A DNA stretch of 64,000 bases, from the NCBI RefSeq assembly GCF_024223415.1, contig NZ_CP100500.1. One strand, written 5' to 3'. Below the pieces are notes generated by a model, which worked only from the letters and a program-made list of their open reading frames with translations, was not told the origin of the DNA and searched no databases. Both the position numbers and the translations under genes were made by a program. Below, one piece after another: positions 44,787 to 62,014 of this stretch. Numbering within the stretch: the first letter of the stretch is position 1; each line of letters opens with the position of its first letter. This DNA is from Escherichia coli (GTDB taxonomy: Bacteria; Pseudomonadota; Gammaproteobacteria; Enterobacterales; Enterobacteriaceae).

Positions 44787-47700
44787 GATACTTTTCCTTT
44801 AGTCGGCAACTTTTCTACACCCAGCAGGGTTAGTAACATTGGGTTTATATCCAATGTCATGCGCAGTTTCGAGTTTTCCTGAGCGCGTCCGCTCTCTCGA
44901 TTTTTGGGCTGATAATACTGGTAGTCAGTTTGCAACAGGTTGAGGTAGTGGATCGTGTGATCCACATTATCCTGCCACATCAGATTATTAGGGTTCTGGC
45001 TGTAGGCGACGTTCAGATAGATAAATCGAATACGTTCATAACGGCCTGCCAGCGCCGTCTGGAGCTGTTTCTGCCCCTCAGTATCCGCCTTTTGGCTGGC
45101 GATATTACGGATCTGGCGAATCTTGTTGTCGCTTTTCTCAAGCGTTTCTTCTGCCCGCGTCAAATCGTCCAACTGTGTCGCCCAGCGCTTAACGTCGATG
45201 CAGAGCAGGTCGTCGCCCACTTCAATAAAGCGGTCAAAAAACTCATAGACCAGCGGTTCAAGGCGTTCAAACACCTGCTGGTCGGAGAGTGGGGTAACAC
45301 CATAACTTTTTAGCACTTTATCGAAGAGATATTCACCGACATTGCCTTTGAGCAACGGAACTAGCCTGGGGTTGGGTACCCATTTTTTGAATGCCTTTTC
45401 CTGGATGTTGTCACATTCACGAATCAACTCGCCGACCAGGTTGCCGGGGGTAAAATCGACATCGTTTCTATACTGCGGAAAGAGGGTGAGCTCTGGCCGG
45501 TACTCTCTTGCGCCGCCAGCGAAATCCGACAGGGCGGAATAATCTCTGTGGGCAAGTCCATCCGGGCCGCGTTTGTGGCAAAGTAAAATCGTTTGATTCC
45601 CTTGCTGACGATCGATAAACAGAGCGTCGTGAACAGATTGCATTTGTCGATTGGCGGTATACAAGGGATTAGCCTGGAGTTTTGCCAGCCAGCGCTGGGG
45701 ATCGGTAAAGGAGTCAGGATCGCGGAATAAATTACATATCTCGAGATAATCGAGATTGCCAGCGCGTACCTTATTAATCCAGTCGGTTTTAAGGACACGT
45801 TTGTGAATTTCATCGATGCGGCGACCATTCGCGACGATAGCTTGCTCAAACGTCAGTCGCTGTTCCGCATTATTGAATGACTGGCCCTGACTCAGCTTTT
45901 CGCACTCCTCCATGAGTCGGTGGTTAAGCAAAGACATACTTTCTGATACCACCTCGTTACCGCTATCTTCACTAAGAGCGGCGAACTGAAATGCAACATT
46001 ACGGAACACATCGCGGGGTAAAAAGATTTCTGTTTTCAATAGAGTGTCGCGACGCTCGACTCGCCCTACGGCCTGCACGACGACTTTGAATAAGCTCATA
46101 TCATGTTCGGCCATTAACAGGCGATAGTTTTCGCCGTGGGCGAAATTAACGTTGAAATCGGCCAGCTTGTGGACGGTAATATCGTCATCGGCGTAGTGTT
46201 TAAGCACGGTAACGTAGTTAGGTAATGTATTGAGGTTGCCGCTGTTGTCCTTTACTTCGCTGTAAAACGAGGAGTTGATGAGCACTAAGCGCTCAAAATC
46301 GACATCCAGACGTGGTGCATTGATATCATTAATATCGCCGTCATGGTATTTAACAAAGTAGTTGAGGCCGGTACCCGCACTTTTATAACTGCTCATAAAT
46401 ACCAGTACGGTATTGCTGTTCTGGAGATAGGTTTCTTGCCTGATATCTTCGACATTAGCCAGTGGTGAATCGAAAAAGACCAAATGGACGGTGTGACGCC
46501 CTTTGAATGGGGTAAAGGTCAGGATCTGGTCATGTTTCTTACCGTTATCCGTTTTTTCATCGCACCGGGAGTGCATACCGTACTGCTGACGCCAGGTTGT
46601 CTGGTGCGTGCGCCAGGCGCTGATAAAGGCCCGCTTAAACGTCCCTGAAAGTGACAGAATCAGGCTGTTTTTACCCTCCCAGGCGGCAAGCAGTAACGCT
46701 TCCAGTTCCCGCTGGCACTGACGCCGTTTATAGGTATTTTTCAGGTCGTATTCCAGCGGTTTCTTCAGCGCGTCGAAAAAGTTGTCATACGTCCTGCGAT
46801 AGATTTCACAATTTTGGTAGATATCGGTCAATTTTAACTGCTTATCATCGAACACCCTGAAGTCTACGTTGCGGATACTGGCCCTCAACCCGCGTAATGC
46901 CTTAAGCGTATCGATATCTGCCTTTTCGCGTTCAACGACCCGGTAGCCAAGGTCGCGGCTATAGTGCGCCAGGAAGTGACGATTGAAGTTACCGTTTTTG
47001 GTGTGGCTAAAACCGCTGGTGGCGCTAAGCCCAATTACTTTATTGTGCGTGCCGGTTAATAAACGCAGCAGCATGGCTTCAGGCAACTCTTGTACCAGAT
47101 CCATCTCGAACGCCAGAATAATTGTGCGCTCGGCTCCCCTGTTCACGTAATTGAGTTCAGCTATCGGCGTCATCGTGAATACGGTTTTGGGTTGCAGGTA
47201 AGTGTAGAAATGATCAATCAACAAGTTTTTATCGGTGGTGCGATCGAAGATATGTCGCACCACGCCGGCTACGTTATTGGCTGCGTCAACAAACTGGCCC
47301 AAAGGCGTATTCTGGCTGCTGGAGTTGTCCTGGCCACCATTCTTTACCCAGCGCTTAAAGTGCCGGTTGGTGATTTCAGAACAGGCGGCGAGGATGACGG
47401 AGACCAACTGGAACAGATCGTGCAGAGTGGGGTTGGTGTCATTGGCATCATTTTCGACTTCGTAATACAGTTCGGTGCGCGTTATGTCGCCTTCGCTGTT
47501 GCGCATGCGAATGCGTTTCAGCCCTTCTTCATTGACGTACATTTTGGGGTTAAAGCTGAATACGTTGCGGGTGATTGAGATGATGCGTTCGGCGGCGTCG
47601 CCGTTGACTTCAAATGCCCCTAACTGGTCACGAAACATCTCCAGGATCGATCCCAGCCTTGTACCGGGGGATAGTTCGCACTTTTCCGCCAGTAAATTGC

Positions 47701-49534
47701 GCAGAGTAGTGATGAATTTGACCATCTCTTGCTCAAAGGTCGTTTGCGCTTCTTTGGGCTTGTTTCGGCGTTCTAAGCTGAGTACCGCGTTGTGAATACG
47801 TCCTGCGACGGAAATAACGTGCGCCAGGTTATTTTCCTGTGTGATTAGCTTTACATGGCATGTTTCTTCAAGGCGAGTGTAGGCTTCATGTAGTTCATCA
47901 ATGATCACCGTAAAACGAATATTTTTCTGGCGAAAAGGACAATCTGGATTGCGTCTGAAGTGTTCGTCGCGAAGATAGGTAACCTGCCCGGTATGACCGG
48001 CTGCCGCAACGGTGCTAATCTGTGGATCTTTGGGAGTCAGCTTACCGCCAATCAGCAAGTCGAAACCTACGGACTCAAAACGCACACCTTCGCCTCGCTG
48101 ACGAGGCGCCAGTCGGTAAGTTGATGTGTCGAACTTATTCGTGGTCATTAATAGCACTGACGGGCGGTACTGGCAAACTTCGAAAGGCAATACCTGTTTG
48201 ATAAGCTCGAAATAGACTTCGTGTACGCTTATCTTAGGTTCAAGCTTTCCTGGTTTTCGTGCTGTCTCCGCGTTTTGCATTCGCTCTTGCCGCGCCTGGA
48301 GCCCGCGACGAATGTACTCTTTAATGGAAGCTTTTTCACTATCTGGTCCAAATAGTAATTTACAGGCTGACTCAATCGTATTGCGGATACTGTGACGGCA
48401 GTTTTTTAGCTGTTCTTCGAGAATTTCTCTTTCGTAGTTGGTATCCTGAGAACCGTATGTTGTCAGCTTTTTTAACTGCTCTTCACAGCGATCAATTTGT
48501 AAGACATGATAATTGAGCGAACGAATAGCGCCGCCGATATATTTGCTGCCTTTCGCCCCTTCGTACCACTGAATATAGCTGTCGCGGTTTTTCAGACCAG
48601 AGGCCCAGTCCATAAAGTCGAGGTCGGCAACATCCTTACGGGAGAGAACGCAAATGAACTCGCCGCTAGCGGCCAGAATTTTCTCTTTCTGACTGCTGTC
48701 CAGGTCGATTTGTGATTTTTGCGGTGACATGAATAGCAGGTTGGTAAAGCCACCTTCAGGAAACAGATCGTCTGACTTTTGGGTTTTGGCGAAGCGCTCC
48801 AGATATTCGACATACCCTTGGATCACGCCATAGCTTTTGCCGAACCCCGTGCCGTCGGAACTGAAGATGACCTCAGCGCCATCACGTTCATGCACGTGGT
48901 AAAGTTGAGAGACTTGGGCGCGACAGGCGTTAATCTCTTTAATCAGCGTTATGTCAGGAATTTGCCTAGAGATGAGATCTTGCAGATTATTATTGATATT
49001 TTTCTCTCCAACACGCTCACACTTGCGGTAACTATTGATGGTTATTTGGCCGCTGTCGATCAGAATCTTTTCCACCTGTATGGGGGCAAGATGCAAGGCT
49101 GTCGCGATTTCATTGATAGTATTGGACAGTGGTTCGTGTGGATTGCTAATCGTGAAGTGGTTTAGTGCTGCCGCAACGGTATCTGGATGCAATGCTTTTC
49201 TGAGGGTGGGAAAGGTGAGGCTGTAATCGTATAGCGCCAAATCATTGCTTATCAGGCAGCGAAACAGTTGTTTAGTGGGATCGCCACCAGGACGGCTGGC
49301 AAATCCCAAGATTTTTGCCTGTTCGAGGCGATAAAGCAATGCTGCGGCATCGCGGTCAGGTGAGTCAAATGCATCGTGGAGCTGCTGGCTAAATGGCATT
49401 GTGGCATTCAGCCGGTTATGGCTGACCAGCGCGGAAAAGAGCTGACGCACCAAGGTTAGCAGCTTACAATCTTCCTCTATAGTCCAGCTTTTTCTCATTC
49501 TTCTTCCCCTTAATATAAATGCCCCTGCAACCAC
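44783..49534 (-). CDS. Very large (1583 aa) SF2-helicase-like P-loop NTPase
   Basis: Walker A-like DGTGFGKS, DExH-like Walker B FTVIIDELHEA, SAT-like motif III LSATSGF, motif VI-like QAVGRVERR, spread over large insertions; overlaps upstream helicase gene by ~25 nt. Confidence 0.65.
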   Translation of the reverse strand: MVAGAFILRGRRMRKSWTIEEDCKLLTLVRQLFSALVSHNRLNATMPFSQQLHDAFDSPDRDAAALLYRLEQAKILGFASRPGGDPTKQLFRCLISNDLALYDYSLTFPTLRKALHPDTVAAALNHFTISNPHEPLSNTINEIATALHLAPIQVEKILIDSGQITINSYRKCERVGEKNINNNLQDLISRQIPDITLIKEINACRAQVSQLYHVHERDGAEVIFSSDGTGFGKSYGVIQGYVEYLERFAKTQKSDDLFPEGGFTNLLFMSPQKSQIDLDSSQKEKILAASGEFICVLSRKDVADLDFMDWASGLKNRDSYIQWYEGAKGSKYIGGAIRSLNYHVLQIDRCEEQLKKLTTYGSQDTNYEREILEEQLKNCRHSIRNTIESACKLLFGPDSEKASIKEYIRRGLQARQERMQNAETARKPGKLEPKISVHEVYFELIKQVLPFEVCQYRPSVLLMTTNKFDTSTYRLAPRQRGEGVRFESVGFDLLIGGKLTPKDPQISTVAAAGHTGQVTYLRDEHFRRNPDCPFRQKNIRFTVIIDELHEAYTRLEETCHVKLITQENNLAHVISVAGRIHNAVLSLERRNKPKEAQTTFEQEMVKFITTLRNLLAEKCELSPGTRLGSILEMFRDQLGAFEVNGDAAERIISITRNVFSFNPKMYVNEEGLKRIRMRNSEGDITRTELYYEVENDANDTNPTLHDLFQLVSVILAACSEITNRHFKRWVKNGGQDNSSSQNTPLGQFVDAANNVAGVVRHIFDRTTDKNLLIDHFYTYLQPKTVFTMTPIAELNYVNRGAERTIILAFEMDLVQELPEAMLLRLLTGTHNKVIGLSATSGFSHTKNGNFNRHFLAHYSRDLGYRVVEREKADIDTLKALRGLRASIRNVDFRVFDDKQLKLTDIYQNCEIYRRTYDNFFDALKKPLEYDLKNTYKRRQCQRELEALLLAAWEGKNSLILSLSGTFKRAFISAWRTHQTTWRQQYGMHSRCDEKTDNGKKHDQILTFTPFKGRHTVHLVFFDSPLANVEDIRQETYLQNSNTVLVFMSSYKSAGTGLNYFVKYHDGDINDINAPRLDVDFERLVLINSSFYSEVKDNSGNLNTLPNYVTVLKHYADDDITVHKLADFNVNFAHGENYRLLMAEHDMSLFKVVVQAVGRVERRDTLLKTEIFLPRDVFRNVAFQFAALSEDSGNEVVSESMSLLNHRLMEECEKLSQGQSFNNAEQRLTFEQAIVANGRRIDEIHKRVLKTDWINKVRAGNLDYLEICNLFRDPDSFTDPQRWLAKLQANPLYTANRQMQSVHDALFIDRQQGNQTILLCHKRGPDGLAHRDYSALSDFAGGAREYRPELTLFPQYRNDVDFTPGNLVGELIRECDNIQEKAFKKWVPNPRLVPLLKGNVGEYLFDKVLKSYGVTPLSDQQVFERLEPLVYEFFDRFIEVGDDLLCIDVKRWATQLDDLTRAEETLEKSDNKIRQIRNIASQKADTEGQKQLQTALAGRYERIRFIYLNVAYSQNPNNLMWQDNVDHTIHYLNLLQTDYQYYQPKNRESGRAQENSKLRMTLDINPMLLTLLGVEKLPTKGKVS

Positions 49535-51708
49535 TCCGTCACGCGTTCAATATTAAAAGCACGTAATCCATATTCCTGCGTCAGCAACGTCTCGGGTAAA
49601 TACTCATCATATTTTTCGAGGCACTTTTCAACGATGCTTTCGGCAAGACGGGATTCGTAAGGTAGCCCTTCCTGAAGTGCGCTGAATAACGCTTGTTTAA
49701 CCTCCGAGACCGTAGTTTTTTCTACTTCAACCACACCAGCAAATGAGCCCGCCTTGAAACCGCGTTGGATAAGTAATGCCGACAACGTGTTTACGGTTTG
49801 ATCGCCTAGCCAGGGAAGAATGTAGACATGCTGTCTCTGCTGAATAAAACATTCCGAAGCCAGATTATTGTTGCGAAAACAGTGCAGCCCTTCATCAAAC
49901 AGGTTTTTGGCCGTGGTATCGGCAAAATCGGCCTTGCGATTGCCAACGGTGATGCGGTAGTCGCCTTCCCGATAAATAGTGAGCATTTCTTGGCGGACGA
50001 CATCATGAATGGACATCCCTTGTCCGCCAAATAACGGCGGCTGCCCACCCTTTGTCGCCTCGACATAAATAACTTTTTTATCACTATCGATATCGGTTAC
50101 CTTCCAGCGTCGACCGCCGAAAATAATGTGTTGATCAGGCATCAGTGGGGAATCAACGGGAATGGAGCCCAGTGTTTTGCTCCCCGCCACAATGCGAAAC
50201 TCTTCCGGCGTGCTGAACACGGCGTAGAAGGTGTATTGATTTACCTGACGTTCGCCCTCGACGCCCAGAACCAGTTCGCCGCTTGAGAGCTGGGTCAGAA
50301 ACTGGTGCTCCCCCATATGTTTCAATAACGTTTTGAAGTCATAGATCCGGACTTTCTGAAATGGCCCTTGCAGGCATAGCTGTGACCAGATCTGATCCGC
50401 ACGCACGCCTCCCCACTGCGCCACGATCGCCAGGATCTGATGGAACAGGGTGGAATAGTGCATCTGCCGGGTATCAGCTGGCTCAAACCATTTGTTGCCG
50501 ATAAGTAAGCGGATCATGGCCAGCGACTGAACAAGCTGAAGCCTGAGCTGGTCGACAATGCCTGATGTTGGCGTCAGTTCATGTTCGGCAATCAGCATTC
50601 TCAATACGGCAGGCGAGTCGCGCCGACCGGAGCGTCCCATTCGCTGACGCAGGCTGGCTACGGAATGGGGGGCGGTAACTTGCACAACGGAGCTGACTTT
50701 ACCGATGTCGATGCCAAGCTCTAACGTCATCGTACAGATGGCGGTGGTGGGTAAGTTGCCTTGTTGAAGCCTCTGTTCCAGCGTTTCACGCAGATCTCTG
50801 GACAGAGATCCGTGATGGGGAAAGAACTCATTGGGAACGATGCTCGCTTCACTGAGATCGCTAAGCGTGGCGGCAATGCTTTCGGTCCGTTTGCGACTAT
50901 TAGCGAACACCAGATGGGAATCACCACGACAGAGGCGAAAGATATCATGGCAGATTTGCGTCTCTGCCGACGGTGGAGATTGCTGGCCCGAGGTGGTCAG
51001 CGGTTCCAGATAACCTTTCACCTGTACTTTTAGCGTGGCGTGAGTCTGACTGTCGGTAATAATGTCACAGGGCAGACGTTGATTTGGCCGCAGAGATAAC
51101 GGCACCTGTTCCAGTTCCCCCAGCGTTGCGCTGAGTGCGACTCGGGGGACTGGATTGTTGATTCTTCCCAGCAGGTGATCGACTCGATTTAACAGAGAGA
51201 GAAGCTGCATACCCCGCTCAGAACCGATGAAAGCATGGAATTCATCAATGGCGATATATGCCAGTGGCGCGAAAGCCTGCTTTAACCATCCCGCATTGCG
51301 GATCAGCATCGCTTCCAGCGATTCCGGGGTGATAAGCAAAATACCGGCAGGATTCTTCTTTGCTTTCAGCTTTTTGCTCTGCGCAACATCACCATGCCAG
51401 GGCGTGACCGGCATCTCCAACGCATCACCGAGGTTTTCCAGCCTTCGATACTGATCGTTAATCAGGGCCTTAAGCGGGCTGATGTATAAAATGCCAAAGC
51501 CGCCCTGAATATCCGCAATGGCAGAACAGGCGGGCAGGAAAAACGCTTCTGTTTTACCTGCGGCAGTCGCGGCGCTGATCAGAACATCCCGATCGCCCGC
51601 TAATATCGGTGAAACGGATTTTTTTTGCAGTTCCCTGAGATCGGCCCATCCCTGCCGGTATATCCACTTCTGTATCCGTGGATCCAGCCGCTGGTATTCG
51701 TTCATCAT
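49510..51708 (-). CDS. DEAD/DEAH-box superfamily 2 helicase, Lhr-like
   Basis: 732 aa; Q-motif region, Walker A AATAAGKTEA, Walker B IAIDEFH, SAT-like LSATL, motif VI QRMGRSGRR. Confidence 0.75.
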   Translation of the reverse strand: MMNEYQRLDPRIQKWIYRQGWADLRELQKKSVSPILAGDRDVLISAATAAGKTEAFFLPACSAIADIQGGFGILYISPLKALINDQYRRLENLGDALEMPVTPWHGDVAQSKKLKAKKNPAGILLITPESLEAMLIRNAGWLKQAFAPLAYIAIDEFHAFIGSERGMQLLSLLNRVDHLLGRINNPVPRVALSATLGELEQVPLSLRPNQRLPCDIITDSQTHATLKVQVKGYLEPLTTSGQQSPPSAETQICHDIFRLCRGDSHLVFANSRKRTESIAATLSDLSEASIVPNEFFPHHGSLSRDLRETLEQRLQQGNLPTTAICTMTLELGIDIGKVSSVVQVTAPHSVASLRQRMGRSGRRDSPAVLRMLIAEHELTPTSGIVDQLRLQLVQSLAMIRLLIGNKWFEPADTRQMHYSTLFHQILAIVAQWGGVRADQIWSQLCLQGPFQKVRIYDFKTLLKHMGEHQFLTQLSSGELVLGVEGERQVNQYTFYAVFSTPEEFRIVAGSKTLGSIPVDSPLMPDQHIIFGGRRWKVTDIDSDKKVIYVEATKGGQPPLFGGQGMSIHDVVRQEMLTIYREGDYRITVGNRKADFADTTAKNLFDEGLHCFRNNNLASECFIQQRQHVYILPWLGDQTVNTLSALLIQRGFKAGSFAGVVEVEKTTVSEVKQALFSALQEGLPYESRLAESIVEKCLEKYDEYLPETLLTQEYGLRAFNIERVTEWLQGHLY

Positions 51709-53021
51709 AATCTGAAGTCGGCCAGACCGTCCTCATCGGCATCTTCTGCCGATGTTATTTCATCCATATCACTGGGTTTTTCTTCCGCGATCGCGACACC
51801 GGCGATTAACTGTGACCACTGAATGGATGGGTTTTGTTCCAGCACGGCCAGCATATCCAGGAAGGCTTTAATCGTGTTTCGTGGCGTACGGAAATAGGCA
51901 TCGCCAATAGTGTTGCTACAGTGGCGTAAAAATGCCGTCAGAGCATCATCAGGAACCAGATACTTATCCGCATCGCCGCCGGAATAAACGTGACGAAGGT
52001 TTTTCAACAGAATATAGAGTTCTTCCGGCGTCAGGCTGGCTAAGTGCAGGGAAGGGGACGAATAATCAATGACACCAGCCCGCTGAGCGAAGCTATTTTC
52101 CGCCAGTCGGGACTGGAGCGCTTCGTAGCTGTACAACCCCTTGCGCGGATCGAACAGGAATTCTGGCGTACCGCCAAGTAAAAAACCGATATATTCAGCC
52201 GTCCCTTGCAGGCAGTCATTCAGAATACGCAGTATCTGTTCATAGTTGGCAACGCGGGCCTGAGTGTTACTGAGCTTATACAGATTGACCATCTCATCCA
52301 GATTCACCAGCAGACCCGCGTATCCGGCCTGACGGACAAACAGGCTCATCAGCTTTAGCGAATCGTAGAAAGAGGCATCAGAAATAATGGTGCGCACACC
52401 CAGATCGTTACGGGCGTCGGTTTTCGTGGTGTATTCACCTCTTAGCCAGCGGATGGCATTTGATTTCAATGTCTCATTATCCTGCTCGTGGCCCTGCCAG
52501 TAACATTCAATGACTTTGGCGAAATCGTAACCGCCAACCATATCAGACAGGGCGGCGAGCTTTTGGTGAATAATCGTCGGAACTGACACATTTGTACTTT
52601 CTGCTTCTTTTCTGGCTTCCGTGATAAAGCGCTCAACCACGCTTAATAATGCGTTTCCATCCGGCTTATTTCGGGTGGATAGATTTTTCATTAGCTCGGA
52701 GTAGAGGTTACGCGCCTGCCCACCCGTCGCGTGGATGCGCCTGTCCGGGGATAAATCGGCGCTGATTGTCACCAGCTTTTTTTCTAGCGCAATTGAGCGC
52801 ACAACGCTTAAAAAGAATGTCTTACCTGAGCCATATTCCCCAATAATCAGCCGGAGTCCTGCGCCGCCATCAGCGATACGCTCAATATCCTGATACAGCG
52901 CTTTTATTTCGTTGACCCGGCCAACCTGAATGTGCTGAATACCAATTTTAGGCGTAACACCTGACTTCAGTGACTGAATAATAGCGTCTCTTTCTTTGAG
53001 ACGAATACGAATGCCAGACAT
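51705..53021 (-). CDS. P-loop ATPase (438 aa), BrxD/DUF2791-like
   Basis: Walker A LIIGEYGSGKTF and Walker B-like LLVNLDEM; start 4 nt downstream of the TerB-like gene stop, stop overlaps helicase start. Confidence 0.65.
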   Translation of the reverse strand: MSGIRIRLKERDAIIQSLKSGVTPKIGIQHIQVGRVNEIKALYQDIERIADGGAGLRLIIGEYGSGKTFFLSVVRSIALEKKLVTISADLSPDRRIHATGGQARNLYSELMKNLSTRNKPDGNALLSVVERFITEARKEAESTNVSVPTIIHQKLAALSDMVGGYDFAKVIECYWQGHEQDNETLKSNAIRWLRGEYTTKTDARNDLGVRTIISDASFYDSLKLMSLFVRQAGYAGLLVNLDEMVNLYKLSNTQARVANYEQILRILNDCLQGTAEYIGFLLGGTPEFLFDPRKGLYSYEALQSRLAENSFAQRAGVIDYSSPSLHLASLTPEELYILLKNLRHVYSGGDADKYLVPDDALTAFLRHCSNTIGDAYFRTPRNTIKAFLDMLAVLEQNPSIQWSQLIAGVAIAEEKPSDMDEITSAEDADEDGLADFRL

Positions 53022-53024
53022 AAA

Positions 53025-55352
53025 TTATCCTTTGAGTTCTTGTGCAATTTCCAGGTCAACGTAAATATCATCGTCATCATCAAGCACCGGGGCGTCAACC
53101 TGTTCGAAAGACCAGTCATTAATTGCTTCAATCGCGCCGCTTAGCATCAAATTAAACTGCTGGCATAGCTCAGCGACTTCGTTTCGCGCCCAGCGTTCTT
53201 TTTCCTGCAAACGTTGGTAAAGTTGATGATGTGCTTCATCAAGACCTGCGCCAGCGTGTGGCGGGATCTCCGCTGGGGATTCGTCTGCGGGTTCATCTTC
53301 GGTGAAGATGGTGTTCAGTAACTGGCGTACGTCCGTTGTGTCGGATTCATGACGGGCAAGGATCCGTTCATCAAGAGAAAACGCGCCGCTCGTCGCTGAT
53401 GGGGTTTGTAACGTAGCTGTCGGAGTTGTTTCTGCGGTTGACAGTCGGTGGATATCGCTGGTAACGGCACTGCTGTCCAGACCGAGGCTGGCGTAGATTT
53501 TTTCCAGTTGTTTGATTTCAGCCGGATCGATTTTTCCATCTGCGCAGGCGACGCTGATAATCACGTTGCCAATAGTGGATTTATCTTTATCGCTGAGTTG
53601 CTCAATTTTACCTTTCAGACCAGCCTGATTTGCAGGCGTATTGAGCCGCCAGGTGAGGTAGGCGTGCAGCGAACGTTTTTCTGTTGGCGACAGCGCATCG
53701 TTATGATTAATCGTTTTCTCCAGCGCGGCCTGTTCAGCAACATCCACGCGCTTGTCCATTTGTGCAATCATGGCACCCAACCGAAGCGCCACAGAGACTG
53801 ACGTAAATTCCGCCGACGGTACGTAGAATTCCGCATGCCCTTCAGGAAATAAAACAAGATGACCTTCTGGATCCGGTCTGACAAGGTGATAGCGCATATC
53901 CGGCGCAATGCCGTAGCCTGCTCGCCGGGCGAAATTTTGCATCAGCTCGGCTTCTTTCTTATTAATCTTATCCGGTACAGGCATACCCAGTCTGGCCCAG
54001 AAATCAGCCACTGTCGCCAGTCCTGAATGTTCACGGATTTTCTCATCTGCCCAGTGTTTAAATTCAGCAAATAGACGTTCTGCATCTTCGGTCAGTATTT
54101 CATCGGGAAGCAGCATGATGGCGGCGACATCACTTGGTGAGGCATCTTTTTTACCGAGATAGCGACTGTAGGCATCCAGCGCGTTGATACAGGATTCTGC
54201 AACAGAAATTAATTTCTGAACTGGGGCTTTTAAAACGCTGGGATCGGGAAGATCCATCTGTTTTTTTACCTGAAGTTCCCGAAGCGTACCACTGGCGGGG
54301 GTATAGCTTAAATACAACCGTGTTTTATTGGGTTTGACGACAATACCGTCACCGTATTTTTGAGTATAACGCTGTTTGAATAATGCGGAAAATTCAGCAT
54401 GACATCGACGGGCAGGCGTGCGCAGGGTGTAATCAGGAAAATAGTATATCCATGCCAGTGCCAGAGCGGCACAAATAGGTTGTCCTTTATCGACCACAGT
54501 CGCTAGATTTAATCTGAACAGTAATGAACTCCTCGATGAGAAATATTCGTTTTCGGTATATATAGAAAGCAACTTCGGTCGGAGAACGATCATCATTTCC
54601 AGCAACTGCGTTGCATAATGCCGGAAGGAACCGCTTGCCTGAAATACGGTTCTCAGGCGCGATATCTCTTCGAATAATGCTTTGAATTCATCGTCAGAAA
54701 TGGCTTCTTGTGTGCCATCGGCCAGTACGCGGCGTTCTAGACCGTAAAAATAGATAAAAACATAGCCAACGGGGCAGCTCGCATCGCTGCGATCGCTTGC
54801 CAGCCAGTCAAGATAGGCGCCACGGCAGCGAGGGGAGAGTGTGGCAAAGCTGGGCCAGTATCCCAGTGACTCATCATAATAATGCCGTGAACCAGGCTCG
54901 ATGGGAAAAGCGTCATTAACCAGCGAAGCGTCGGAGTCATCGTTATAAAGATATCCATATTCTCCTGATGAATGTGTTTTTAACCGCCCGCCGAAATAAA
55001 AATAACCGTGATTAATGACGACATTTTGAATGGTGATGCTTTCTCCCGGTTTGACCCATCGCGCTGGAGTGGTATTGCTACGGGCGGCGTTTTCTCGTGA
55101 CGGCTGGCGGCTGGTGCTGTATTCAACCGTCTGCCCGTTCACAAAAGTAAAGGTTGCCAGTTCGTCATCATCGGAGGCCTGAGAATGCATATTTGTCATG
55201 CTGTTATCTGGCTTATTGAGAGATTTCTGTCGAGATGAATGATTTATTTTGGTGATGATTTTGTTGTTTACTCTGGGGGGCGGCGATTTTTTCTTTTTGG
55301 AAAACAGAAGCCAGATAACCGCCAGCATAATAACAAATATCCAGAAGCCCAT
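53025..55352 (-). CDS. Membrane-anchored 775-aa protein with TerB-like C-terminal region; first gene of the operon
   Basis: ATG at 55352; N-terminal TM helix FWIFVIMLAVIWLLF followed by a KKKK stop-transfer; C-terminal block VACADGKIDPAEIKQLEKIYASLGL resembles TerB/DjlA-N-type helical domains. Confidence 0.55.
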   Translation of the reverse strand: MGFWIFVIMLAVIWLLFSKKKKSPPPRVNNKIITKINHSSRQKSLNKPDNSMTNMHSQASDDDELATFTFVNGQTVEYSTSRQPSRENAARSNTTPARWVKPGESITIQNVVINHGYFYFGGRLKTHSSGEYGYLYNDDSDASLVNDAFPIEPGSRHYYDESLGYWPSFATLSPRCRGAYLDWLASDRSDASCPVGYVFIYFYGLERRVLADGTQEAISDDEFKALFEEISRLRTVFQASGSFRHYATQLLEMMIVLRPKLLSIYTENEYFSSRSSLLFRLNLATVVDKGQPICAALALAWIYYFPDYTLRTPARRCHAEFSALFKQRYTQKYGDGIVVKPNKTRLYLSYTPASGTLRELQVKKQMDLPDPSVLKAPVQKLISVAESCINALDAYSRYLGKKDASPSDVAAIMLLPDEILTEDAERLFAEFKHWADEKIREHSGLATVADFWARLGMPVPDKINKKEAELMQNFARRAGYGIAPDMRYHLVRPDPEGHLVLFPEGHAEFYVPSAEFTSVSVALRLGAMIAQMDKRVDVAEQAALEKTINHNDALSPTEKRSLHAYLTWRLNTPANQAGLKGKIEQLSDKDKSTIGNVIISVACADGKIDPAEIKQLEKIYASLGLDSSAVTSDIHRLSTAETTPTATLQTPSATSGAFSLDERILARHESDTTDVRQLLNTIFTEDEPADESPAEIPPHAGAGLDEAHHQLYQRLQEKERWARNEVAELCQQFNLMLSGAIEAINDWSFEQVDAPVLDDDDDIYVDLEIAQELKG

Positions 55353-55535
55353 TCCTTGCCCTTAATCGCTGATAACGCTTCCCGGCATTGTTCTACGATA
55401 GGCAAAGGCGGTAAGCATAAAACTGGAAGAGAGATCGTAAAATGATACCGCGAATGGGCTAGAGTACAAGCATAAAAACCCTATTATTCAAAAGGATTAT
55501 GTCATATGGCTGGGGGAGCAATTGGCAGGACCAGG
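55353..55535 (-). promoter_or_regulatory. Putative promoter/5' UTR region of the five-gene island operon
   Basis: 183-bp non-coding gap between the abiEii stop and the first operon gene; all five downstream genes overlap or abut. Confidence 0.3.
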
Positions 55536-56642
55536 TTATACCTCTGAATCACGCATAAAACGATTGATTTCATCTTGCGCATGACGAAGACGATCGGCAA
55601 TGTCAGCAAATCTGTCAGGCTGATGAAAGAACATTCCCCCTTCCACCGCCGTTTGATGATCCCCGGCGATCGCTGCGAACCGTTCAGCATCGTCAGGCAA
55701 CAGTTGCAGGTTTCCGACAATCACCTGAGTAAAATCCACACCCGGCACAGACCAGCGACGTTGCTTCATCTCGACCACATTGCGCATGGCTTCCAGCGTT
55801 TCATAGGGGCTGGCAAAATGATTACTCAGCAGACAATCCACATCATACCAATGGCGTGCCAGTCGGGCCGGATTTGGCGCTTTGGTTTGCGTGCAGAACT
55901 GGTGCAGCGCCGTCAGCTTTTCCCAAAGAATATAACCGGTGTCATAAGCGTTTACGGTCGCGGTGGGTAACTGGAGTGTATCCATGCCTGCGATCCCGGA
56001 CAGATAGCTTACAACAGGCATCAGATCGGTTGGCTTGCCACGATTTCGTCCGCCAAATTCCAGCAGAATATGATCGCGCTGATAGGCCATACTGTCTTCT
56101 TTCACCCGTGGGAAATAGATATCGACTTTTTCGCCACCACTGTCGGGTTCCATTTTTGCTTCAAGGCCCGGAATTTCATAAGTCTGAAAGCGTTGGTTTA
56201 ACCGTTCTGCCAGCGCGTTTGTCCATTCTGTTAAGCGCTCTTGCTGCTGCTCTCTGAACCGGCGATTCTGGCTGTTATTTAGCGTGCTTTGCTCCCATGC
56301 CTGCTGTTCTTCCTCTTCTGAGTGGCCTGCCAGATCGGCCCAGTGAACAGAAAGATCGATATCTTCAGAAAAACGCTCAATCACGTTCCAGCATTTGCTT
56401 AACGCCGTTCCACCTTTAAACGCGACAGATAAACCTCCCAGCAGCTCCTCATTAAAAAGTAACCGAAGGATCTCCGTTACCCAGAGATCCTTTTCCAGAA
56501 AGCTGGCTCCCAGCCCGGAGGGATGCTGCTGCGCCGCGTAAGAGAGGATTTCCTGAAGCTCGCGACGTTGTGATGCGCTCCGGTAGTAATCAAAAATGTC
56601 CATCAGAGCGCCTTTTGCAACGTTATCAGCTGCGAGCGCCAC
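55536..56642 (-). CDS. AbiEii/AbiGii-family nucleotidyltransferase toxin (type IV TA / abortive infection)
   Basis: 368 aa; nucleotidyltransferase block FKGGTALSKCW...RFSEDIDL; overlaps upstream antitoxin-like gene. Confidence 0.7.
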   Translation of the reverse strand: MALAADNVAKGALMDIFDYYRSASQRRELQEILSYAAQQHPSGLGASFLEKDLWVTEILRLLFNEELLGGLSVAFKGGTALSKCWNVIERFSEDIDLSVHWADLAGHSEEEEQQAWEQSTLNNSQNRRFREQQQERLTEWTNALAERLNQRFQTYEIPGLEAKMEPDSGGEKVDIYFPRVKEDSMAYQRDHILLEFGGRNRGKPTDLMPVVSYLSGIAGMDTLQLPTATVNAYDTGYILWEKLTALHQFCTQTKAPNPARLARHWYDVDCLLSNHFASPYETLEAMRNVVEMKQRRWSVPGVDFTQVIVGNLQLLPDDAERFAAIAGDHQTAVEGGMFFHQPDRFADIADRLRHAQDEINRFMRDSEV

Positions 56643-57262
56643 GCGTGAAGCGCAGGCTCATTCATCAACTTTCCGGCAATCTGCCGTGCTTTAGCGGACG
56701 GGATGCTCAGCCGATGAAAAGCATTCTTCAGCGTTTCCAATGGGGTATGTTGCTGATCCAGACTCAGCAAACCGCGCATCAGCTCTCCTTCAGGCCGGTT
56801 CAGCCAACGTAACCGACTTGCTGATTTATGCTGGATCCGTACCCGCTCATTGCCGACGCGGAATTCTCGCGTAGGGCCGTTTGACCAGTAGATGCGTTTA
56901 ACTGGCGCCTGCGTTTGCAGCCCCAGCCGGTAAGCGGCTTCCAGCCCCTGAAGGGTGATTTTGTAACCACGCTCTTTTGCCCATGCGGCGGCAACGGCAT
57001 TGGCGCTGGCAACAACGTTAACAGAGGGGATGTTTTTCAACGGCTTTGGCCGGGAGTAGAAACCGCGTTCAACCCGGACCAGCAGGCCTTCTTTGACCAG
57101 ACGGCTCATTGCCTGTTGTACCGACGCACGGCTTCCCAGCGAGTAAAACCCGCTGATGGAAAAGGGGATGCCACGCTTCATGCGGTGAACCCGCTGGCGG
57201 GCCAGAGCGGCAACAGACATTGATTCTCCTGTACTGACGTTTTCATTGATATGTATTTTCAT
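56603..57262 (-). CDS. AbiEi-family antitoxin / transcriptional regulator (start uncertain, possibly internal Met near 57220)
   Basis: ~200 aa protein with N-terminal wHTH-like region, overlapping the AbiEii gene start by ~40 nt in the typical AbiEi-AbiEii arrangement. Confidence 0.6.
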   Translation of the reverse strand: MKIHINENVSTGESMSVAALARQRVHRMKRGIPFSISGFYSLGSRASVQQAMSRLVKEGLLVRVERGFYSRPKPLKNIPSVNVVASANAVAAAWAKERGYKITLQGLEAAYRLGLQTQAPVKRIYWSNGPTREFRVGNERVRIQHKSASRLRWLNRPEGELMRGLLSLDQQHTPLETLKNAFHRLSIPSAKARQIAGKLMNEPALHAWRSQLITLQKAL

Positions 57263-57418
57263 TATATCCCTTGTGTAGCAAGGAGTCTAACCTAAAAAAT
57301 GTCAGTAATATTCATTCTATGACAATGTTTAAAATGGCAGATATCAGTGAGGTAGCTTGCTGTAGGAAATTCCGACGATAAAATACCCACATACAGCAGG
57401 CGGTGATAAGGATATAGC

Positions 57419-59614
57419 ATGAGCATTCTCTCCATCCACGGCGTTCGCAGTTATCAGGGCGAAAGGCCAGTGGAGTTCGACTTGAGTAAGTATGTCACTC
57501 TTATCTATGGACAAAACGGCTCAGGAAAATCAACCGTTTCTGGTTACTTTTATAAGCATGGTCGTCCAGATTACAGCCAGTGCAGCCTGCGACCTCCACT
57601 GGATATGAACTACCTGGTGTTTAATCAGGAGTATGTAGACGATATTTTCAGCCAACCTTCTCAGCCGGGCATTTTCACTTTAAATAGTGAAAATGCAGAA
57701 ATTAAAACTGAAATAGATGCTCTGGAAGCGGAGAGTAAAGTTTTGTTTGCCCGGCGTGATGCTTTGGACGTGCAAAAACGCGACGTTGAGGGCATGGAAG
57801 AAAGTATTAAAAATGGCTCCGCAAAACAGATTTATAGTTCTACCGCAGAAATCAGAAAAACAGATTTATGGGATTTGATGTCTGGAACTAAACAGACCGA
57901 CAAACTTTTTCAGACCATCCTTGAACACACTGAAGTCGAAGATACTTCGACGCAGGAATTAACCGAAGAACTACACCGACTTGAAGCCAGTAAAGGCAAC
58001 CCTTACGCTTTGCTCGAAGCATTGCCAGCATCCCCTTTGAATGACAATGATATTGCGCTATTGATGCAACCTCTTATTCCAGCAGGTGATAGCCGTCTTG
58101 CTGCCGCAATTAACCAATTGGGCAACATTGACTGGGTGAGGAATGGACAGCAGTGGCTGAGTGATGACATTTGCCCATTTTGTCAAACGCCGATAGATGC
58201 CCGGCAACTTCAACAGGAAATCACTGCCCTTTTTGATACCTCATGGGAAGCTGCGATGGACCAGTTGCGGGAACTTCAGGCGCGATATCAATTCTGGCAC
58301 GATAAACCCGAACATATGCGGCAGTTAATAAAAACGTGTCCGTTAGTTGATCAGGAACATCCTGTTTATCTCTATCTACTTGAACTGGAGCAGGCGTATC
58401 AAAGAAATAAATTGCATATCGATGAGAAATTGACATCACCCTCTGCGTCGATTGCTGTTGAGGATCTTTCTGCTCTGGCTGGCAATGTCTCTGTGCAGAT
58501 AGCCAGTATTAATACAATAATAAGCGAACATAACCGAAAGGCTGAAAATTATCAGACTGAACGGGTTAGACTGAAACAGAGACTACTCAGTCATATCCGA
58601 AAACTGGCTACCGATACGATAATTAACCATGATGAACAACTAGCAGAACTTGCTGAAAAATTGGCAAAATTAACGGTGTCTCGGGATGAAATTACGGCCC
58701 AGCTTGATACGCTGAACGCAATTATTCGCGGTAAATCCAGCCTGATCGTCAATACGCAGGAAACGATTGAACGTATTAATCACAGCTTGGATAGCCTTGG
58801 AATCACTGGATTCCGCATTGCTCCCTATGACGATCGGGATGATTATCGTCTGGTGAGGGAAGGTGAGAACAGCGATACGCCTGTTTTTAGTAGTCTGAGT
58901 GAAGGGGAAAAGACGCTGATTGCTTTTCTCTATTTTCTGGAGACTTGCACAGGGAGAAAAAGTCGTGATGACAATGACCAACGAAAACGTTTAATTGTCA
59001 TTGATGATCCTATATCCAGCCTGTCGCAAAACTATGTTTTTGAAATAGCATCGTTGATCCAGCATCAGGTTATACGTGCCAGAATTGGTGAGAAAGTGAT
59101 TATTCTGACGCACAGCCTGTTTTTCTTTCAGGAGTTACTGCTTTCTGCGGAACGGAAGAAAAGGGCAGCGGGTTCTTGCCCACCAGAATGGACGCTTTAT
59201 CGGGTATCCAAATCCTTACATAGTTCTGCTTCCCTTGTTTCCGAAAAAGAATTACTGAACGACTATCAGGCACTCTGGTATGTCTTACGCCACGCCCAAA
59301 AAGATGACATTGCCAGTGTGGTGATCCCAAATACGATGCGGCAAATCCTTGAATACTATTTTGGTTTTTCGGGGAAAAGTGAGACGCTTCACCGGGCGCT
59401 TGAAACACTGGCGAGCGGGCCTGAAGGTGAACCTGGTTTCCGTATATTTGCTCGTTATCTAAATCGACATTCTCACCAGGATGCCCGCAATATCTCTCTT
59501 CATGAGGGGGCTTCGGTTGAACGCTATCTTACCTGGTTTAAGAAAGTATTCGAGGCGGCAAAGGATGAAGAGCATTACACATCAATGATGGAAAAGACGA
59601 CACAAACGACCTGA
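57419..59614 (+). CDS. RloC/PrrC-like ABC-type ATPase with coiled-coil zinc hook; candidate anticodon nuclease
   Basis: 731 aa; N-terminal Walker A GQNGSGKST, long predicted coiled coil containing CPFCQ (CxxC hook), Walker B/D-loop LIVIDDPISSLS, C-terminal RQILEYYFGF...H block reminiscent of PrrC/RloC nuclease motif. Confidence 0.55.
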   Translation: MSILSIHGVRSYQGERPVEFDLSKYVTLIYGQNGSGKSTVSGYFYKHGRPDYSQCSLRPPLDMNYLVFNQEYVDDIFSQPSQPGIFTLNSENAEIKTEIDALEAESKVLFARRDALDVQKRDVEGMEESIKNGSAKQIYSSTAEIRKTDLWDLMSGTKQTDKLFQTILEHTEVEDTSTQELTEELHRLEASKGNPYALLEALPASPLNDNDIALLMQPLIPAGDSRLAAAINQLGNIDWVRNGQQWLSDDICPFCQTPIDARQLQQEITALFDTSWEAAMDQLRELQARYQFWHDKPEHMRQLIKTCPLVDQEHPVYLYLLELEQAYQRNKLHIDEKLTSPSASIAVEDLSALAGNVSVQIASINTIISEHNRKAENYQTERVRLKQRLLSHIRKLATDTIINHDEQLAELAEKLAKLTVSRDEITAQLDTLNAIIRGKSSLIVNTQETIERINHSLDSLGITGFRIAPYDDRDDYRLVREGENSDTPVFSSLSEGEKTLIAFLYFLETCTGRKSRDDNDQRKRLIVIDDPISSLSQNYVFEIASLIQHQVIRARIGEKVIILTHSLFFFQELLLSAERKKRAAGSCPPEWTLYRVSKSLHSSASLVSEKELLNDYQALWYVLRHAQKDDIASVVIPNTMRQILEYYFGFSGKSETLHRALETLASGPEGEPGFRIFARYLNRHSHQDARNISLHEGASVERYLTWFKKVFEAAKDEEHYTSMMEKTTQTT

Positions 59615-61132
59615 TTAACAACAGAAGAGGACCATCACCCCGGGATTAACCGTTAGCAGTTCGGCAAAGAGCGCATGTGCTGGCACACGTGCTCCCAGCG
59701 ACCAAAACGGAAACGCAGATACTGGTGAACCAGCACAGTTTTCTGTTTCATACCGGGCTCCTTTCTTTCGACGCCGACAAGCTGTCGGCGAGCCCCGTAC
59801 ACCTCGTACGAGCGTGACTATCGTGTAGAGGCTAAGGATCCCGGGGGATGGCTTCCGCTATCGTAGGCGATTTCATTTGATGATTCAATCTTTGCTTTGG
59901 ATAACAATTAATTGAGATGGTCGTATTTTAGTATTAGCACTGTATGTCTTAGCTATAGTGCTGCTGAAATGACCAATTCGGGAACCGTGATGGTTTCCTG
60001 GAAACTCTCTTGCTTATTTTACGATGCTGGCCGATTATCACAAAACGTTGCTTAAACGCTGATTGGATATGGTGCTTTGTGGCAGTCATTCGCTTGTCTG
60101 ACGTTGCCATGGCTTACATTTGATGTAGCCAATGTAGAAGCCGCTTGGTGAATTGTTCTATGACATGGTCTACTACTTCGTTGTGGAAAATGAAGATGCG
60201 GTACCGGGTATGTACCATTGATGGTGAGAGGCTTATCGACGAATGGACCGTACGATATTGCTTGGCTGGAAAGGTGTGTGAAGCATTGTAGATTTACATT
60301 CACAAAATCGCGAGAAAATCTACAAACAACTCTATTTCCAGAAAAATGAGTTTCCCCTTTCTGCGCCAGAAATAAAGGCGTAATCTCCCTCCTGCACTAT
60401 GTTGTCGTGGACAACTCCCTTGCTTCATGGTCTGCAAGAAGCCCCTGATTTATCAGGATGACCAGCCCTTTCTACCGGTACGACCTCCGCAATACCGGAA
60501 CGCGAAAGCGTTTGAGGCTAAGAGTACATACACATGAACGGCTCCATCGTCATCGCTTAACGGCAACAGCCTTCACCGGCTGAACGGCCTCTCTTTGCCG
60601 GAATTTTCCTGGCCCACTTATACCCTGCTGATAACCAGCGCCTTTTTACATGACGGGCTGCGGCCTGCATTGCCGAAGGCTTTGCTGCCGCGTGACCGTC
60701 ATCCTGCACCAGAGTGTTAATTTTCAGACCCTGCGCCAGACCAGGGCGTCAGTCGCTCACGCGCAGTGAGAGACTGACGCCCGCAGAAATTTCCATCTGC
60801 ACCAGTCATATCAACTGTTCCAGCCACAGGCGAGCTTCTGACGTCGCTTTTCAGCATTTATCTCAACCATTCATTCACAAAAGGAGAACATGAGCCAGTA
60901 CCGGAGGAGGACCACCAGGACGGTCCGGGGGATGACCAGCTCACGCTGGCGGCTGCTCTGAGAGCACAACCGATACCCCGCAAAACCTCAACAGCCGTCG
61001 CCCCGGCGCTCAGGTACTGCTCGCAGCCCCGACAAAAATCAGGGGCTATCGGCCTACGCGCCGGGGAAAGCTGTATCCGTTGTTTGTTGTGGTTTTGTGA
61101 AAATCAGGAGCGAGAGAAGAGGAAAACGTAAA

Positions 61133-62014
61133 ATGGGTATGCTGGAAAGAGAGATGAAAAACCTGGCGCGGCAGGCTGGCGGGTCGCACAAGACTGTCCA
61201 TGACCGTATCGCCATGGCAGGACGTTTCTGCGAACGCCTGATGGAACTGAACGTTCAGATACGCTATGTCCACCATTTAAAGGCGAAGCATATTGAGGCG
61301 TATATTCAGATGCGGCTGGCGCAGGGGATTCAGAAAAATACGCTGCATAACGAAACGGCGGCTATCCGTAAAATCCTGACGCAGGCCGGGCGCGAAAAGC
61401 TGGCGCAGAGTGAACGGATATCGAATAAATCGCTGGGGCTGGCTGGCGTATCCCGCAATGGTACGCGGAAAGCCATCACGCCGGAATATTATCAACAGAT
61501 GGCAGAGGCTGCCCGGCTGAAAGATGCGGGGCTGGCGGCGGCGCTGGAACTGACGCGGCTGATGGGGCTACGCTCTCAGGAGGCAGTACGCTGTTCCGGT
61601 TCGCTGAAAACCTGGCGCGAAGCACTGGAGAAAGGTGATACCCGGCTAACCGTGGTACTCGGTACCAAAGGTGGACGGCCCCGTGACACGATTATTCAGG
61701 ATACTGGCGCAGTTAAACAGGCGCTGGATAAGGCCATCGTGGTGGCAGAACGGCGCAACGGCAGGCTGATTGATGCGGCGAGCCTTAAACAGGCAATGAA
61801 ATACTGGCGCAACCAGACTTTGCGTATGGGGCTGACGGGCAAATACTCCCCGCACTCACTGCGCTACGCCTGGGCGCAGGACGATATCTGCCGGTATCTG
61901 GCGCAGGGGTTCAGCGAAAAAGAAGCGCTGGCGATGGTGGCAATGGACCTAGGGCATGGCGACGGGCGTGGTCGCTGGGTGAAGCAGGTGTATGCACGGA
62001 ATGATGAAGCGTGA
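61133..62014 (+). CDS. Small tyrosine-recombinase/integrase-like protein
   Basis: ATG at 61133 preceded by a GAGG RBS; C-terminal HSLRYAWAQ box and RGR region resemble catalytic boxes of phage integrase family; unusually short. Confidence 0.45.
   Translation: MGMLEREMKNLARQAGGSHKTVHDRIAMAGRFCERLMELNVQIRYVHHLKAKHIEAYIQMRLAQGIQKNTLHNETAAIRKILTQAGREKLAQSERISNKSLGLAGVSRNGTRKAITPEYYQQMAEAARLKDAGLAAALELTRLMGLRSQEAVRCSGSLKTWREALEKGDTRLTVVLGTKGGRPRDTIIQDTGAVKQALDKAIVVAERRNGRLIDAASLKQAMKYWRNQTLRMGLTGKYSPHSLRYAWAQDDICRYLAQGFSEKEALAMVAMDLGHGDGRGRWVKQVYARNDEA

Follow-up and report, generated by a model that had tools for sequence, protein, structure and literature searches.

A probable self-contained AbiE-family toxin-antitoxin cassette with a DUF6088-type antitoxin in a tRNA-Phe island of Escherichia coli

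The window, a stretch of 64,000 nucleotides (nt) from the Escherichia coli contig NZ_CP100500.1, carries at 55536-57220 two minus-strand genes, abiEi and abiEii, with the antitoxin gene standing first. Judging from sequence profiles, modelled folds and analogy with characterised relatives, this pair is most probably a functional and self-contained AbiE-family toxin-antitoxin, or abortive-infection, cassette of ~1.75 kb made up of a promoter, abiEi and abiEii. The results below establish the family and fold of the pair, the integrity of its catalytic residues, its organisation as an operon, the purifying selection on it, its modularity and the conservation of its promoter architecture. The parts of the cassette, with protein sizes in amino acids (aa), are as follows.

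56603-57220, minus strand: abiEi, predicted 205-aa antitoxin of the Pfam DUF6088 type (profile, fold, selection)
55536-56603, minus strand: abiEii, predicted 355-aa DUF1814 nucleotidyltransferase toxin (profile, motifs, fold)
56601-56605, minus strand: TGATG junction, in which the abiEi stop TGA and the abiEii start ATG have one base in common (sequence; annotation by the Prokaryotic Genome Annotation Pipeline, PGAP)
57226-57230, minus strand: Shine-Dalgarno sequence AGGAG, 5 nt before the abiEi ATG (sequence; kept in enterobacterial orthologues)
57261-57289, minus strand: predicted sigma-70 promoter of abiE, with -35 TAGACT (57289-57284), a 17-nt spacer and -10 TATAAT (57266-57261)
57296-57307: upstream inverted-repeat arm (minus-strand sequence TACTGACATTTT), shortly before the -35; candidate half-site of an AbiEi operator
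57232-57243: downstream inverted-repeat arm (minus-strand sequence AAAACGTCAGTA), after the predicted transcription start and before the ribosome-binding site

The real genes are shorter than the maximal open reading frames (ORFs) in the ORF list, which run over 56603-57262 (219 aa, ATG) and 55536-56642 (368 aa, GTG), both on the minus strand. The toxin size of 368 aa given in the initial annotation of this DNA, like the 219-aa ORF, is therefore replaced by 355 and 205 aa. Several observations lead to these starts. PGAP calls abiEi from ATG 57220 (618 nt, 205 aa) and abiEii from ATG 56603 (1068 nt, 355 aa) in an identical genome, with a single base of overlap, in keeping with the AGGAG and TGATG positions. 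The PADLOC profile matches begin at residue 15 of the 219-aa ORF and residue 14 of the 368-aa ORF, and the N-termini of the homologues read MSV throughout for abiEi and M(D/N)IFD for abiEii. Moreover, conservation across 12 orthologous loci begins at ATGTCTGTT, with none upstream of that point, and ATG 57262 of the long abiEi ORF falls within the predicted -10 hexamer (57266-57261). The two genes do overlap, as had been noted earlier, but with the corrected starts they do so by 1 nt (TGATG, 56605-56601) and not by 40 nt. This overlap suggests translational coupling of abiEi and abiEii. The same junction is found in loci L002, L006, L011 and L016, and the overlapping antitoxin-then-toxin arrangement recurs in 10 related loci. 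A search of NCBIfam returned no model for either protein.

The proposal of an AbiEi/AbiEii-type pair is borne out by profile scores that lie far above chance for both proteins. The toxin matches Pfam AbiEii (PF08843, DUF1814) with 131.3 bits (7.2e-38) over profile positions 3-237 of 238, against a curated cut-off of 22.5 bits, and the subfamily-specific PADLOC AbiEii model PDLC02315 end to end (2.8e-193). The peptide FKGGTALSK...SEDIDL, from which a nucleotidyltransferase had been proposed, is confirmed in the toxin ORF. It holds motif I (K63-G64-G65), followed after 15 residues by motif II (D81-I82-D83), and G65-x15-D81-I-D83 therefore fits the signature hG[G/S]x15DhD described by Dy et al. 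for the DNA polymerase beta-type motifs I and II of AbiEii toxins, in which an arginine is needed for toxicity (PMC3985639). R77 precedes D81 by four residues, giving the core register R77-x-S79-x-D81-x-D83. When conservation was scored over 37 homologues of 55-95% identity, G65, R77, S79, D81, D83, K229 (KLTAL) and D254 (RHWYD) were invariant and G64 nearly so. The stretches K229-L-T-A-L and R250-H-W-Y-D254 are invariant as well and lie inside the Pfam-aligned region; by pattern they are the putative counterparts of motif III (KLxAaxxR) and motif IV (+DxxD), in which AbiEii toxicity depends on the Lys and the Asp.

The register R-x-[S/T]-x-D-x-D places S79, two residues before the first catalytic Asp (S79-E80-D81), at the known phospho-acceptor position. 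T66 of FKGGT was considered as the counterpart of T65 of the Streptococcus agalactiae toxin and was rejected; the register gives S79.

The AlphaFold2 model of the toxin, built on the family alignment, has a mean predicted local distance difference test score (pLDDT) of 91.5 and a predicted template modelling (TM) score of 0.90. A fold comparison with the PDB gives the toxin the bi-lobed nucleotidyltransferase fold of MenT and AbiEii: MenT3/TglT, MenT4 and MenT1 make up the 12 best matches, each with a probability of 1.00; those to MenT3 and MenT4 have E-values of ~7e-6 and target-normalised TM-scores of 0.55-0.62. The model includes a helical insertion of ~55 aa at about residues 88-142, which is absent from the ~290-aa MenT toxins. 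Profile, motifs and modelled fold together support the assignment of the toxin as a DUF1814/AbiEii nucleotidyltransferase, as the initial annotation had it.

The upstream gene had been described as a winged helix-turn-helix antitoxin, with an AbiEi domain to be sought in Pfam. The AbiEi-like character of the protein is sustained by PADLOC and Foldseek, whereas Pfam returns DUF6088 in place of an AbiEi domain. DUF6088 (2.7e-18) is the sole Pfam match above threshold, and AbiEi_4 reaches 21.8-22 bits over 19 residues, below its 25-bit cut-off. AbiEi_4 is detected in 33 of 37 members of the antitoxin family, with a best E-value of 9e-7. By profile, the protein is not placed in any of the canonical Pfam families AbiEi_1 to AbiEi_4, and the combination of AbiEii with DUF6088 is given as a non-canonical pairing in a 2025 survey (PMC12654330). 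The PADLOC AbiEi model PDLC02226, on the other hand, is matched with 7.2e-46 over residues 15-196 of the 219-aa ORF. The AlphaFold2 model has a pLDDT of 83.6, and its top three Foldseek matches are chains A and B of 1ZEL (Rv2827c) and then 6Y8Q (S. agalactiae AbiEi), each with probability 1.00 and E-values of 1e-4 to 1e-3; for the C-terminal domain the fold match is of moderate quality (TM ~0.4). A family-profile search of the PDB with the antitoxin gave no match. These results support a winged-helix, AbiEi-like antitoxin that, as modelled, is structurally of the AbiEi type without canonical AbiEi membership in Pfam. The most conserved stretch of its C-terminal domain is the helix-to-strand loop G100-x-Q-T-Q-A-P106, which we infer to be the neutralising element and a likely toxin contact because of its analogy with the toxin-contacting loop of AbiEi and MenA3 (10.64898/2026.01.19.700257).

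The predicted promoter agrees with the consensus at 10 of 12 positions. When 12 orthologous upstream regions, drawn from nine genera, are aligned, essentially only four elements prove conserved, namely the -10, the TCACA just after it, a CTGAC core and a GTCA(G) core. The -10 is invariant as T-A-x-A-A-T in all 12 regions. The two cores belong to the inverted repeat I1, whose 12-nt arms are 92% complementary and bracket the promoter. The upstream CTGAC is present, at a fixed distance from the -10, in 11/11 regions that reach it, the downstream GTCA is invariant in 12/12, and the centre-to-centre spacing of CTGAC and GTCAG is 66-67 bp in all 11 loci with both arms. The length of perfect complementarity ranges from 5 to 16 bp across loci, and the flanks covary (TAC..GTA in enterobacteria versus TCC..GGA in marine genera). 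The Enterobacter/Klebsiella clade has GTCAC as its downstream core; strict complementarity of the arms is thus lost there. The extended motif occurs once in the window, at the abiE promoter. The pair and its promoter architecture are conserved across the nine genera, and the CTGAC/GTCAG arms are regarded as candidate half-sites of an AbiEi operator. A second palindrome, CCTTG-CTACA-CAAGG (57268-57282, minus strand), fills the spacer between -35 and -10. Palindromes of the CC..GG kind, differing in sequence, occupy the spacer in most but not all orthologues, for instance CCCC..GGGG in Enterobacter and ACCTTA..TAAGGT in Shewanella, and this element is a weaker operator candidate than the arms.

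Purifying selection acts on both genes. The ratio of nonsynonymous to synonymous substitution (dN/dS) was 0.05-0.09 for abiEi and ~0.17 for abiEii when the window was compared with E. coli variants of 93% and 95.6% nucleotide identity and with Salmonella. The region 55300-57450 is 100% identical to several complete E. coli genomes, and relatives of the pair are present in 34 of 5,426 complete E. coli genomes, always as one chromosomal copy. These data bear on the idea that the pair is an inactive relic without current function. The idea draws on the degenerate state of the surrounding island, with its frameshifted integrase gene and IS3 remnant, on the neighbouring AAA_13 gene, which is split or truncated in related islands, and on a relative in Budvicia that has lost most of its toxin gene. 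It is nevertheless extremely improbable, given the dN/dS of 0.05-0.17, the invariance of all the catalytic residues and the conservation of promoter, ribosome-binding site and inverted repeat. Furthermore, no disrupted frame was found among the four orthologous copies translated (the window and three others), and the search listing of the 34 E. coli copies gives every one as protein-coding and labels none as a pseudogene.

Homologues of both proteins are abundant in Gammaproteobacteria, with many members of the subfamily, of about 56-58% identity, in Shewanella. The genes stay paired, with the same junction, in Enterobacter, Klebsiella, Salmonella, Shewanella, Cellvibrio, Neptunomonas and Pseudoalteromonas. 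Their neighbours vary: a DUF1156/DUF499/SNF2 cluster in Enterobacter, type 1 BREX in Klebsiella, Wadjet in Salmonella, Hachiman with BrxR in Pseudoalteromonas, a Tn7-like element (TniQ/TnsD) in Neptunomonas and housekeeping genes in Cellvibrio. In Budvicia diplopodorum (L013, 7001-7740), 40 codons are all that is left of abiEii behind an orphan DUF6088 antitoxin gene (76% identical product), so that the toxin has been lost naturally and its antitoxin kept; no orphan toxin was found among the related loci examined. This asymmetry and the purifying selection on both genes lend indirect support to a toxin that would inhibit growth by itself and be neutralised by its antitoxin. Homology between the window and Salmonella breaks off within abiEii, 10 nt short of its 3' end, and with two other loci it sets in exactly at the -10 box. 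From these breakpoints at the cassette ends and the variable neighbours, it follows that a unit of ~1.75 kb is shuffled among defence islands. The phage genomes searched held no homologue, and the plasmids searched held only homologues of at most 31% identity.

The same biochemistry could also have been selected for addiction, the pair stabilising the tRNA-Phe island and other mobile carriers against loss. Such a role would suit a pair that sits in an integrative island with a frameshifted integrase gene and has relatives in a Tn7-like element, beside integrase fragments and, distantly, on plasmids. MosAT, an AbiE-like pair, helps to maintain the SXT element (Dy et al., PMC3985639), and S. agalactiae AbiE failed to protect against 32 coliphages (10.64898/2026.01.19.700257). 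However, seven of nine non-E. coli or divergent contexts have recognised or candidate defence genes as immediate neighbours (Wadjet, BREX, Hachiman, the DUF1156/DUF499/SNF2 cluster, a McrA-like HNH gene and an OLD-family nuclease gene), which is the usual signature of a defence gene, and AbiE of Lactococcus lactis and related DUF1814 pairs protect against phage (10.64898/2026.01.19.700257; PMC3985639). Addiction as the selected role is therefore a possibility of the less likely kind, and it and phage defence are not mutually exclusive; the genomic context favours defence.

A mechanism for the self-contained AbiE cassette can be proposed by analogy. Free AbiEii would use a nucleoside triphosphate and Mg2+, held by D81 and D83, to extend the 3'-CCA ends of transfer RNA (tRNA), which would block aminoacylation and translation and so stop growth. 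MenT3 (PMC7450476) and MenT1 (PMC10435456) add nucleotides to tRNA 3'-CCA ends and block translation; the S. agalactiae AbiEii reportedly has nucleotidyltransferase activity specific for uridine triphosphate (10.64898/2026.01.19.700257), and induction of a Serratia AbiE toxin shifts tRNA abundance (PMC7725324). The C-terminal domain of AbiEi would bind the toxin, likely via G100-x-Q-T-Q-A-P106, and might thereby provoke auto-phosphorylation of S79 and silence the toxin according to type VII logic. A phospho-acceptor has been described for MenT3, MenT1 and AbiEii (PMC11375011; 10.64898/2026.01.19.700257), and a 2026 preprint reports that S. agalactiae AbiEi binds AbiEii and triggers its auto-phosphorylation (10.64898/2026.01.19.700257). 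Alternatively, neutralisation may follow another route, as in MenA4/MenT4. The winged-helix domain of AbiEi would repress the abiE promoter via the CTGAC/GTCAG half-sites, in the manner of AbiE antitoxins that repress their own promoters (PMC3985639, PMC7319586). The toxin would be set free when antitoxin activity falls, either on phage infection or after the island is lost.

Several points weigh against this reading of the pair. For toxicity and its neutralisation, for the target and nucleotide specificity of the toxin, and for DNA binding and phage defence, the case is one of inference by analogy. The toxin is only 13-15% identical to any solved homologue. Direct PDB sequence searches with either protein as the query gave nothing significant, and in a family-profile search of the PDB only the motif I/II stretch FKGGT..RFSxDxD of the toxin was aligned, to MenT4 (6Y56); it was because these sequence searches were nearly empty that the fold comparison was needed. 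Motif III is without its arginine, F236 standing at the position of S. agalactiae R180, and motif IV reads RHWYD instead of +DxxD, with His in place of the first Asp. The helical insertion may alter the target of the toxin. Additionally, the candidate half-sites are 67 bp apart, whereas the 23-bp repeats of the characterised operators stand 3 bp (S. agalactiae) or 13 bp (Rv2827c) apart (PMC7319586). MenA4/MenT4 reportedly works without phosphorylation (10.64898/2026.01.19.700257), and since MenA4 is the top fold match of the antitoxin, the type VII step may not apply here. Finally, the lack of protection by S. agalactiae AbiE against the 32 coliphages was recorded in E. coli itself (10.64898/2026.01.19.700257).

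Among the characterised systems, AbiEi/AbiEii of S. agalactiae (SAG1284/SAG1285) is likewise a two-gene operon with overlapping genes and the antitoxin first. Its toxin has the same G-G ... R-x-[S/T]-x-D-x-D core and, by pattern, the conserved Lys and the late Asp, so that R77/S79/D81/D83 here correspond to R63/T65/D67/D69 there (PMC3985639; 10.64898/2026.01.19.700257). Its antitoxin, the third Foldseek match, has the same two-domain build of a winged helix and a C-terminal domain, and its promoter also carries inverted repeats. The differences are considerable. The antitoxin described here is ~11% identical to S. agalactiae AbiEi and belongs by profile to DUF6088, not to DUF4095/COG5340, and the 355-aa toxin differs by its insertion and by the absence of the motif III arginine. 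The genes overlap by 1 nt here and by 4 nt there, the candidate operator brackets the promoter whereas the two 23-bp repeats of S. agalactiae lie side by side 3 bp apart (PMC7319586), and the host element is a Gram-negative chromosomal island as opposed to a streptococcal integrative and conjugative element.

The best structural matches are MenA3/MenT3 (Rv1044/Rv1045, TglT/TakA) and MenA4/MenT4 (Rv2827c/Rv2826c) of Mycobacterium tuberculosis. The MenT4 segment FKGGTSLRKC...RFSTDLDFS aligns with FKGGTALSKCW...RFSEDIDLS of the toxin, and S78/D80/D82 of MenT3, where S78 is the phospho-acceptor, correspond to S79/D81/D83. The MenT toxins, of ~290 aa and 13-15% identity to the toxin, do not have the helical insertion, and Rv2827c (293 aa) is larger than the 205-aa antitoxin. 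MenT3 and MenT4 differ in nucleotide use and in neutralisation, and therefore neither predicts the specificity of the toxin described here. AbiE-1, AbiE-2 and AbiE-3 of Serratia sp. ATCC 39006 are enterobacterial chromosomal pairs and functional toxin-antitoxin systems, with antitoxins of the AbiEi_3, AbiEi_4 and DUF4095 types (PMC7725324). Compared by description only, these antitoxins are not of the DUF6088 type, and their different Pfam families indicate that AbiEii toxins pair with diverse winged-helix antitoxins. The shotgun-cloned pairs SanaTA, SdenTA (Shewanella) and RlegTA consist of gammaproteobacterial DUF1814 toxins and small AbiEi-like antitoxins, and SanaTA protects against a T7 mutant (10.64898/2026.01.19.700257). 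Their antitoxins, of 136, 174 and 205 aa, are likened to the present one by description only.

In the light of these comparisons, the earlier designation of the pair as a classical type IV module stands as regards the toxin-antitoxin module; the type label is contested by the type VII preprint (10.64898/2026.01.19.700257). The label type IV follows the 2014 description and may be superseded. It is conceivable, though rather unlikely, that DUF6088 antitoxins define a distinct AbiE subclass with a regulatory geometry of its own, in which two monomers would occupy the half-sites, 66-67 bp apart on the two sides of the core promoter, and bridging by the C-terminal domains would loop or wrap the promoter. 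Within such a subclass, the ~55-aa insertion of the toxin could confer a different RNA target or trigger.

The pair is an uncharacterised member of a very common and already-annotated family, with a DUF6088-type antitoxin and a distinctive candidate operator geometry, and the result is of little weight by itself. No experimentally characterised DUF6088-paired AbiE was found in the literature searched. The E. coli copy offers a convenient model in a tractable host for asking whether S79 auto-phosphorylation extends to the DUF6088 branch, and the conserved half-sites offer a ready-made operator hypothesis.

The genomic surroundings of the cassette comprise the following features.

41119-63647: island of 22.5 kb delimited by tRNA-Phe 3'-end direct repeats at 41119-41139 and 63631-63647 (blastn of the L008 tRNA-Phe region against the window)
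42555-55352, minus strand: five-gene operon, 183 bp downstream of the abiE pair
53025-55352, minus strand: SngA (TerB), PADLOC 4.6e-97
51705-53021, minus strand: SngB (ATPase), PADLOC 4.1e-187
49510-51708, minus strand: SngC (helicase), PADLOC 1.2e-273
44783-49534 and 42555-44786, minus strand: two large ORFs after SngC (1583 aa and 743 aa), with overlapping stop and start codons
57419-59614, plus strand: divergent AAA_13 ATPase of 731 aa (Pfam AAA_13 7.7e-104; PADLOC candidate system PDC-S06 3.3e-242, PADLOC PrrC 3.9e-16)
62196-63502: P4-type integrase gene, frameshifted (PGAP annotation of an identical E. coli locus)

The compact defence island that had been proposed is supported and has definite ends, the repeats matching tRNA-Phe over 21/21 and 17/17 nt. 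The island is placed between yghD and an element of the Salmonella pathogenicity island 7 (SPI-7) type (ParA, DnaB-PI and others in an identical genome) and includes an IS3 remnant. ARAGORN detected no intact tRNA in the window, which together with the repeats points to tandem island accretion at pheV. The position directly upstream of a five-gene operon is likewise correct, and the first three genes of that operon are consecutive and encode SngA, SngB and SngC, the combination that identifies Shango. The 1583-aa and 743-aa ORFs had no Pfam or PADLOC match and are called hypothetical in RefSeq. In an E. coli island of 93% identity, SngABC stands alone and is followed by Wadjet; therefore, the two large ORFs represent an optional add-on or a separate system.

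On the other side, abiE and the PDC-S06 gene diverge from a common 198-bp intergenic region. The PDC-S06 ATPase lies outside the toxin-antitoxin pair, and its PrrC/RloC-like C-terminus makes the earlier label RloC-like a reasonable one. The gene is intact here, but two ORFs represent it in the E. coli variant of 93% identity (L008, 13885-15742), where it is split; Salmonella keeps a 150-aa 5' fragment (L006, 6733-7185), and an OLD-family nuclease gene takes its place in another E. coli lineage and in Budvicia. A predicted tRNA-modifying toxin thus adjoins an anticodon-nuclease-like protein of the PrrC/RloC kind, but the pairing is unstable.

In E. coli, 33 of the 34 copies adjoin a TerB/Shango operon, in islands with P4-type integrases at tRNA-Phe genes. 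This constancy raises the question of whether AbiEi is mainly a transcription factor for the Shango-type operon or for PDC-S06, the pair being the regulatory or sensor module of a larger system. The 198-bp region from which abiE and PDC-S06 are both read and the 5' AAA_13 fragment retained in Salmonella would agree with such a role. A scan found no convincing terminator between abiEii and sngA, where the region folds no better than shuffled sequences (z +1.25), and read-through into sngA is therefore possible. Nonetheless, a regulatory role of this kind is very unlikely. Neither Shango nor AAA_13 accompanies the cassette in Enterobacter, Klebsiella, Shewanella, Cellvibrio, Neptunomonas, Pseudoalteromonas and one E. 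coli, homology breaks exactly at the cassette ends, the single extended inverted-repeat motif of the window lies at the abiE promoter, and the three-gene Shango is found with the same cassette but a different intergenic length.

An obligatory AbiE-Shango unit was also considered and rejected, on account of the unrelated neighbours elsewhere and the breaks at the cassette ends. The connection with the helicase operon drawn in the initial annotation holds as co-residence in one island lineage, but not as a functional unit, against which the cassette boundaries and varied neighbours argue. A weaker extension of the self-contained cassette would be that read-through from the autoregulated abiE promoter primes the downstream Shango-type operon. 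Partners vary even within E. coli, where one lineage has the three-gene Shango with Wadjet and another an OLD-family nuclease gene replacing PDC-S06. The locus therefore offers a clean case of cassette shuffling, in which one tRNA-Phe scaffold holds Shango, Wadjet, an OLD-family nuclease or PDC-S06 in varied combination around the same AbiE cassette.

The interval 59615-61096 (~1.5 kb), which separates the PDC-S06 gene from the integrase-domain gene, contains no ORF of at least 100 aa. At the matching position, islands L008 and L009 have a small hypothetical gene and a helix-turn-helix gene; the match of the window to L008 stops at 59935, and that to L009 resumes only at 60328. An EFASI RNA (Rfam RF02957) is located at 60890-61023 on the plus strand, matched over its full length with 112.7 bits against a gathering score of 51.2, and lies directly upstream of the Integrase_1/Phage_int_SAM_2 gene at 61097-62014.

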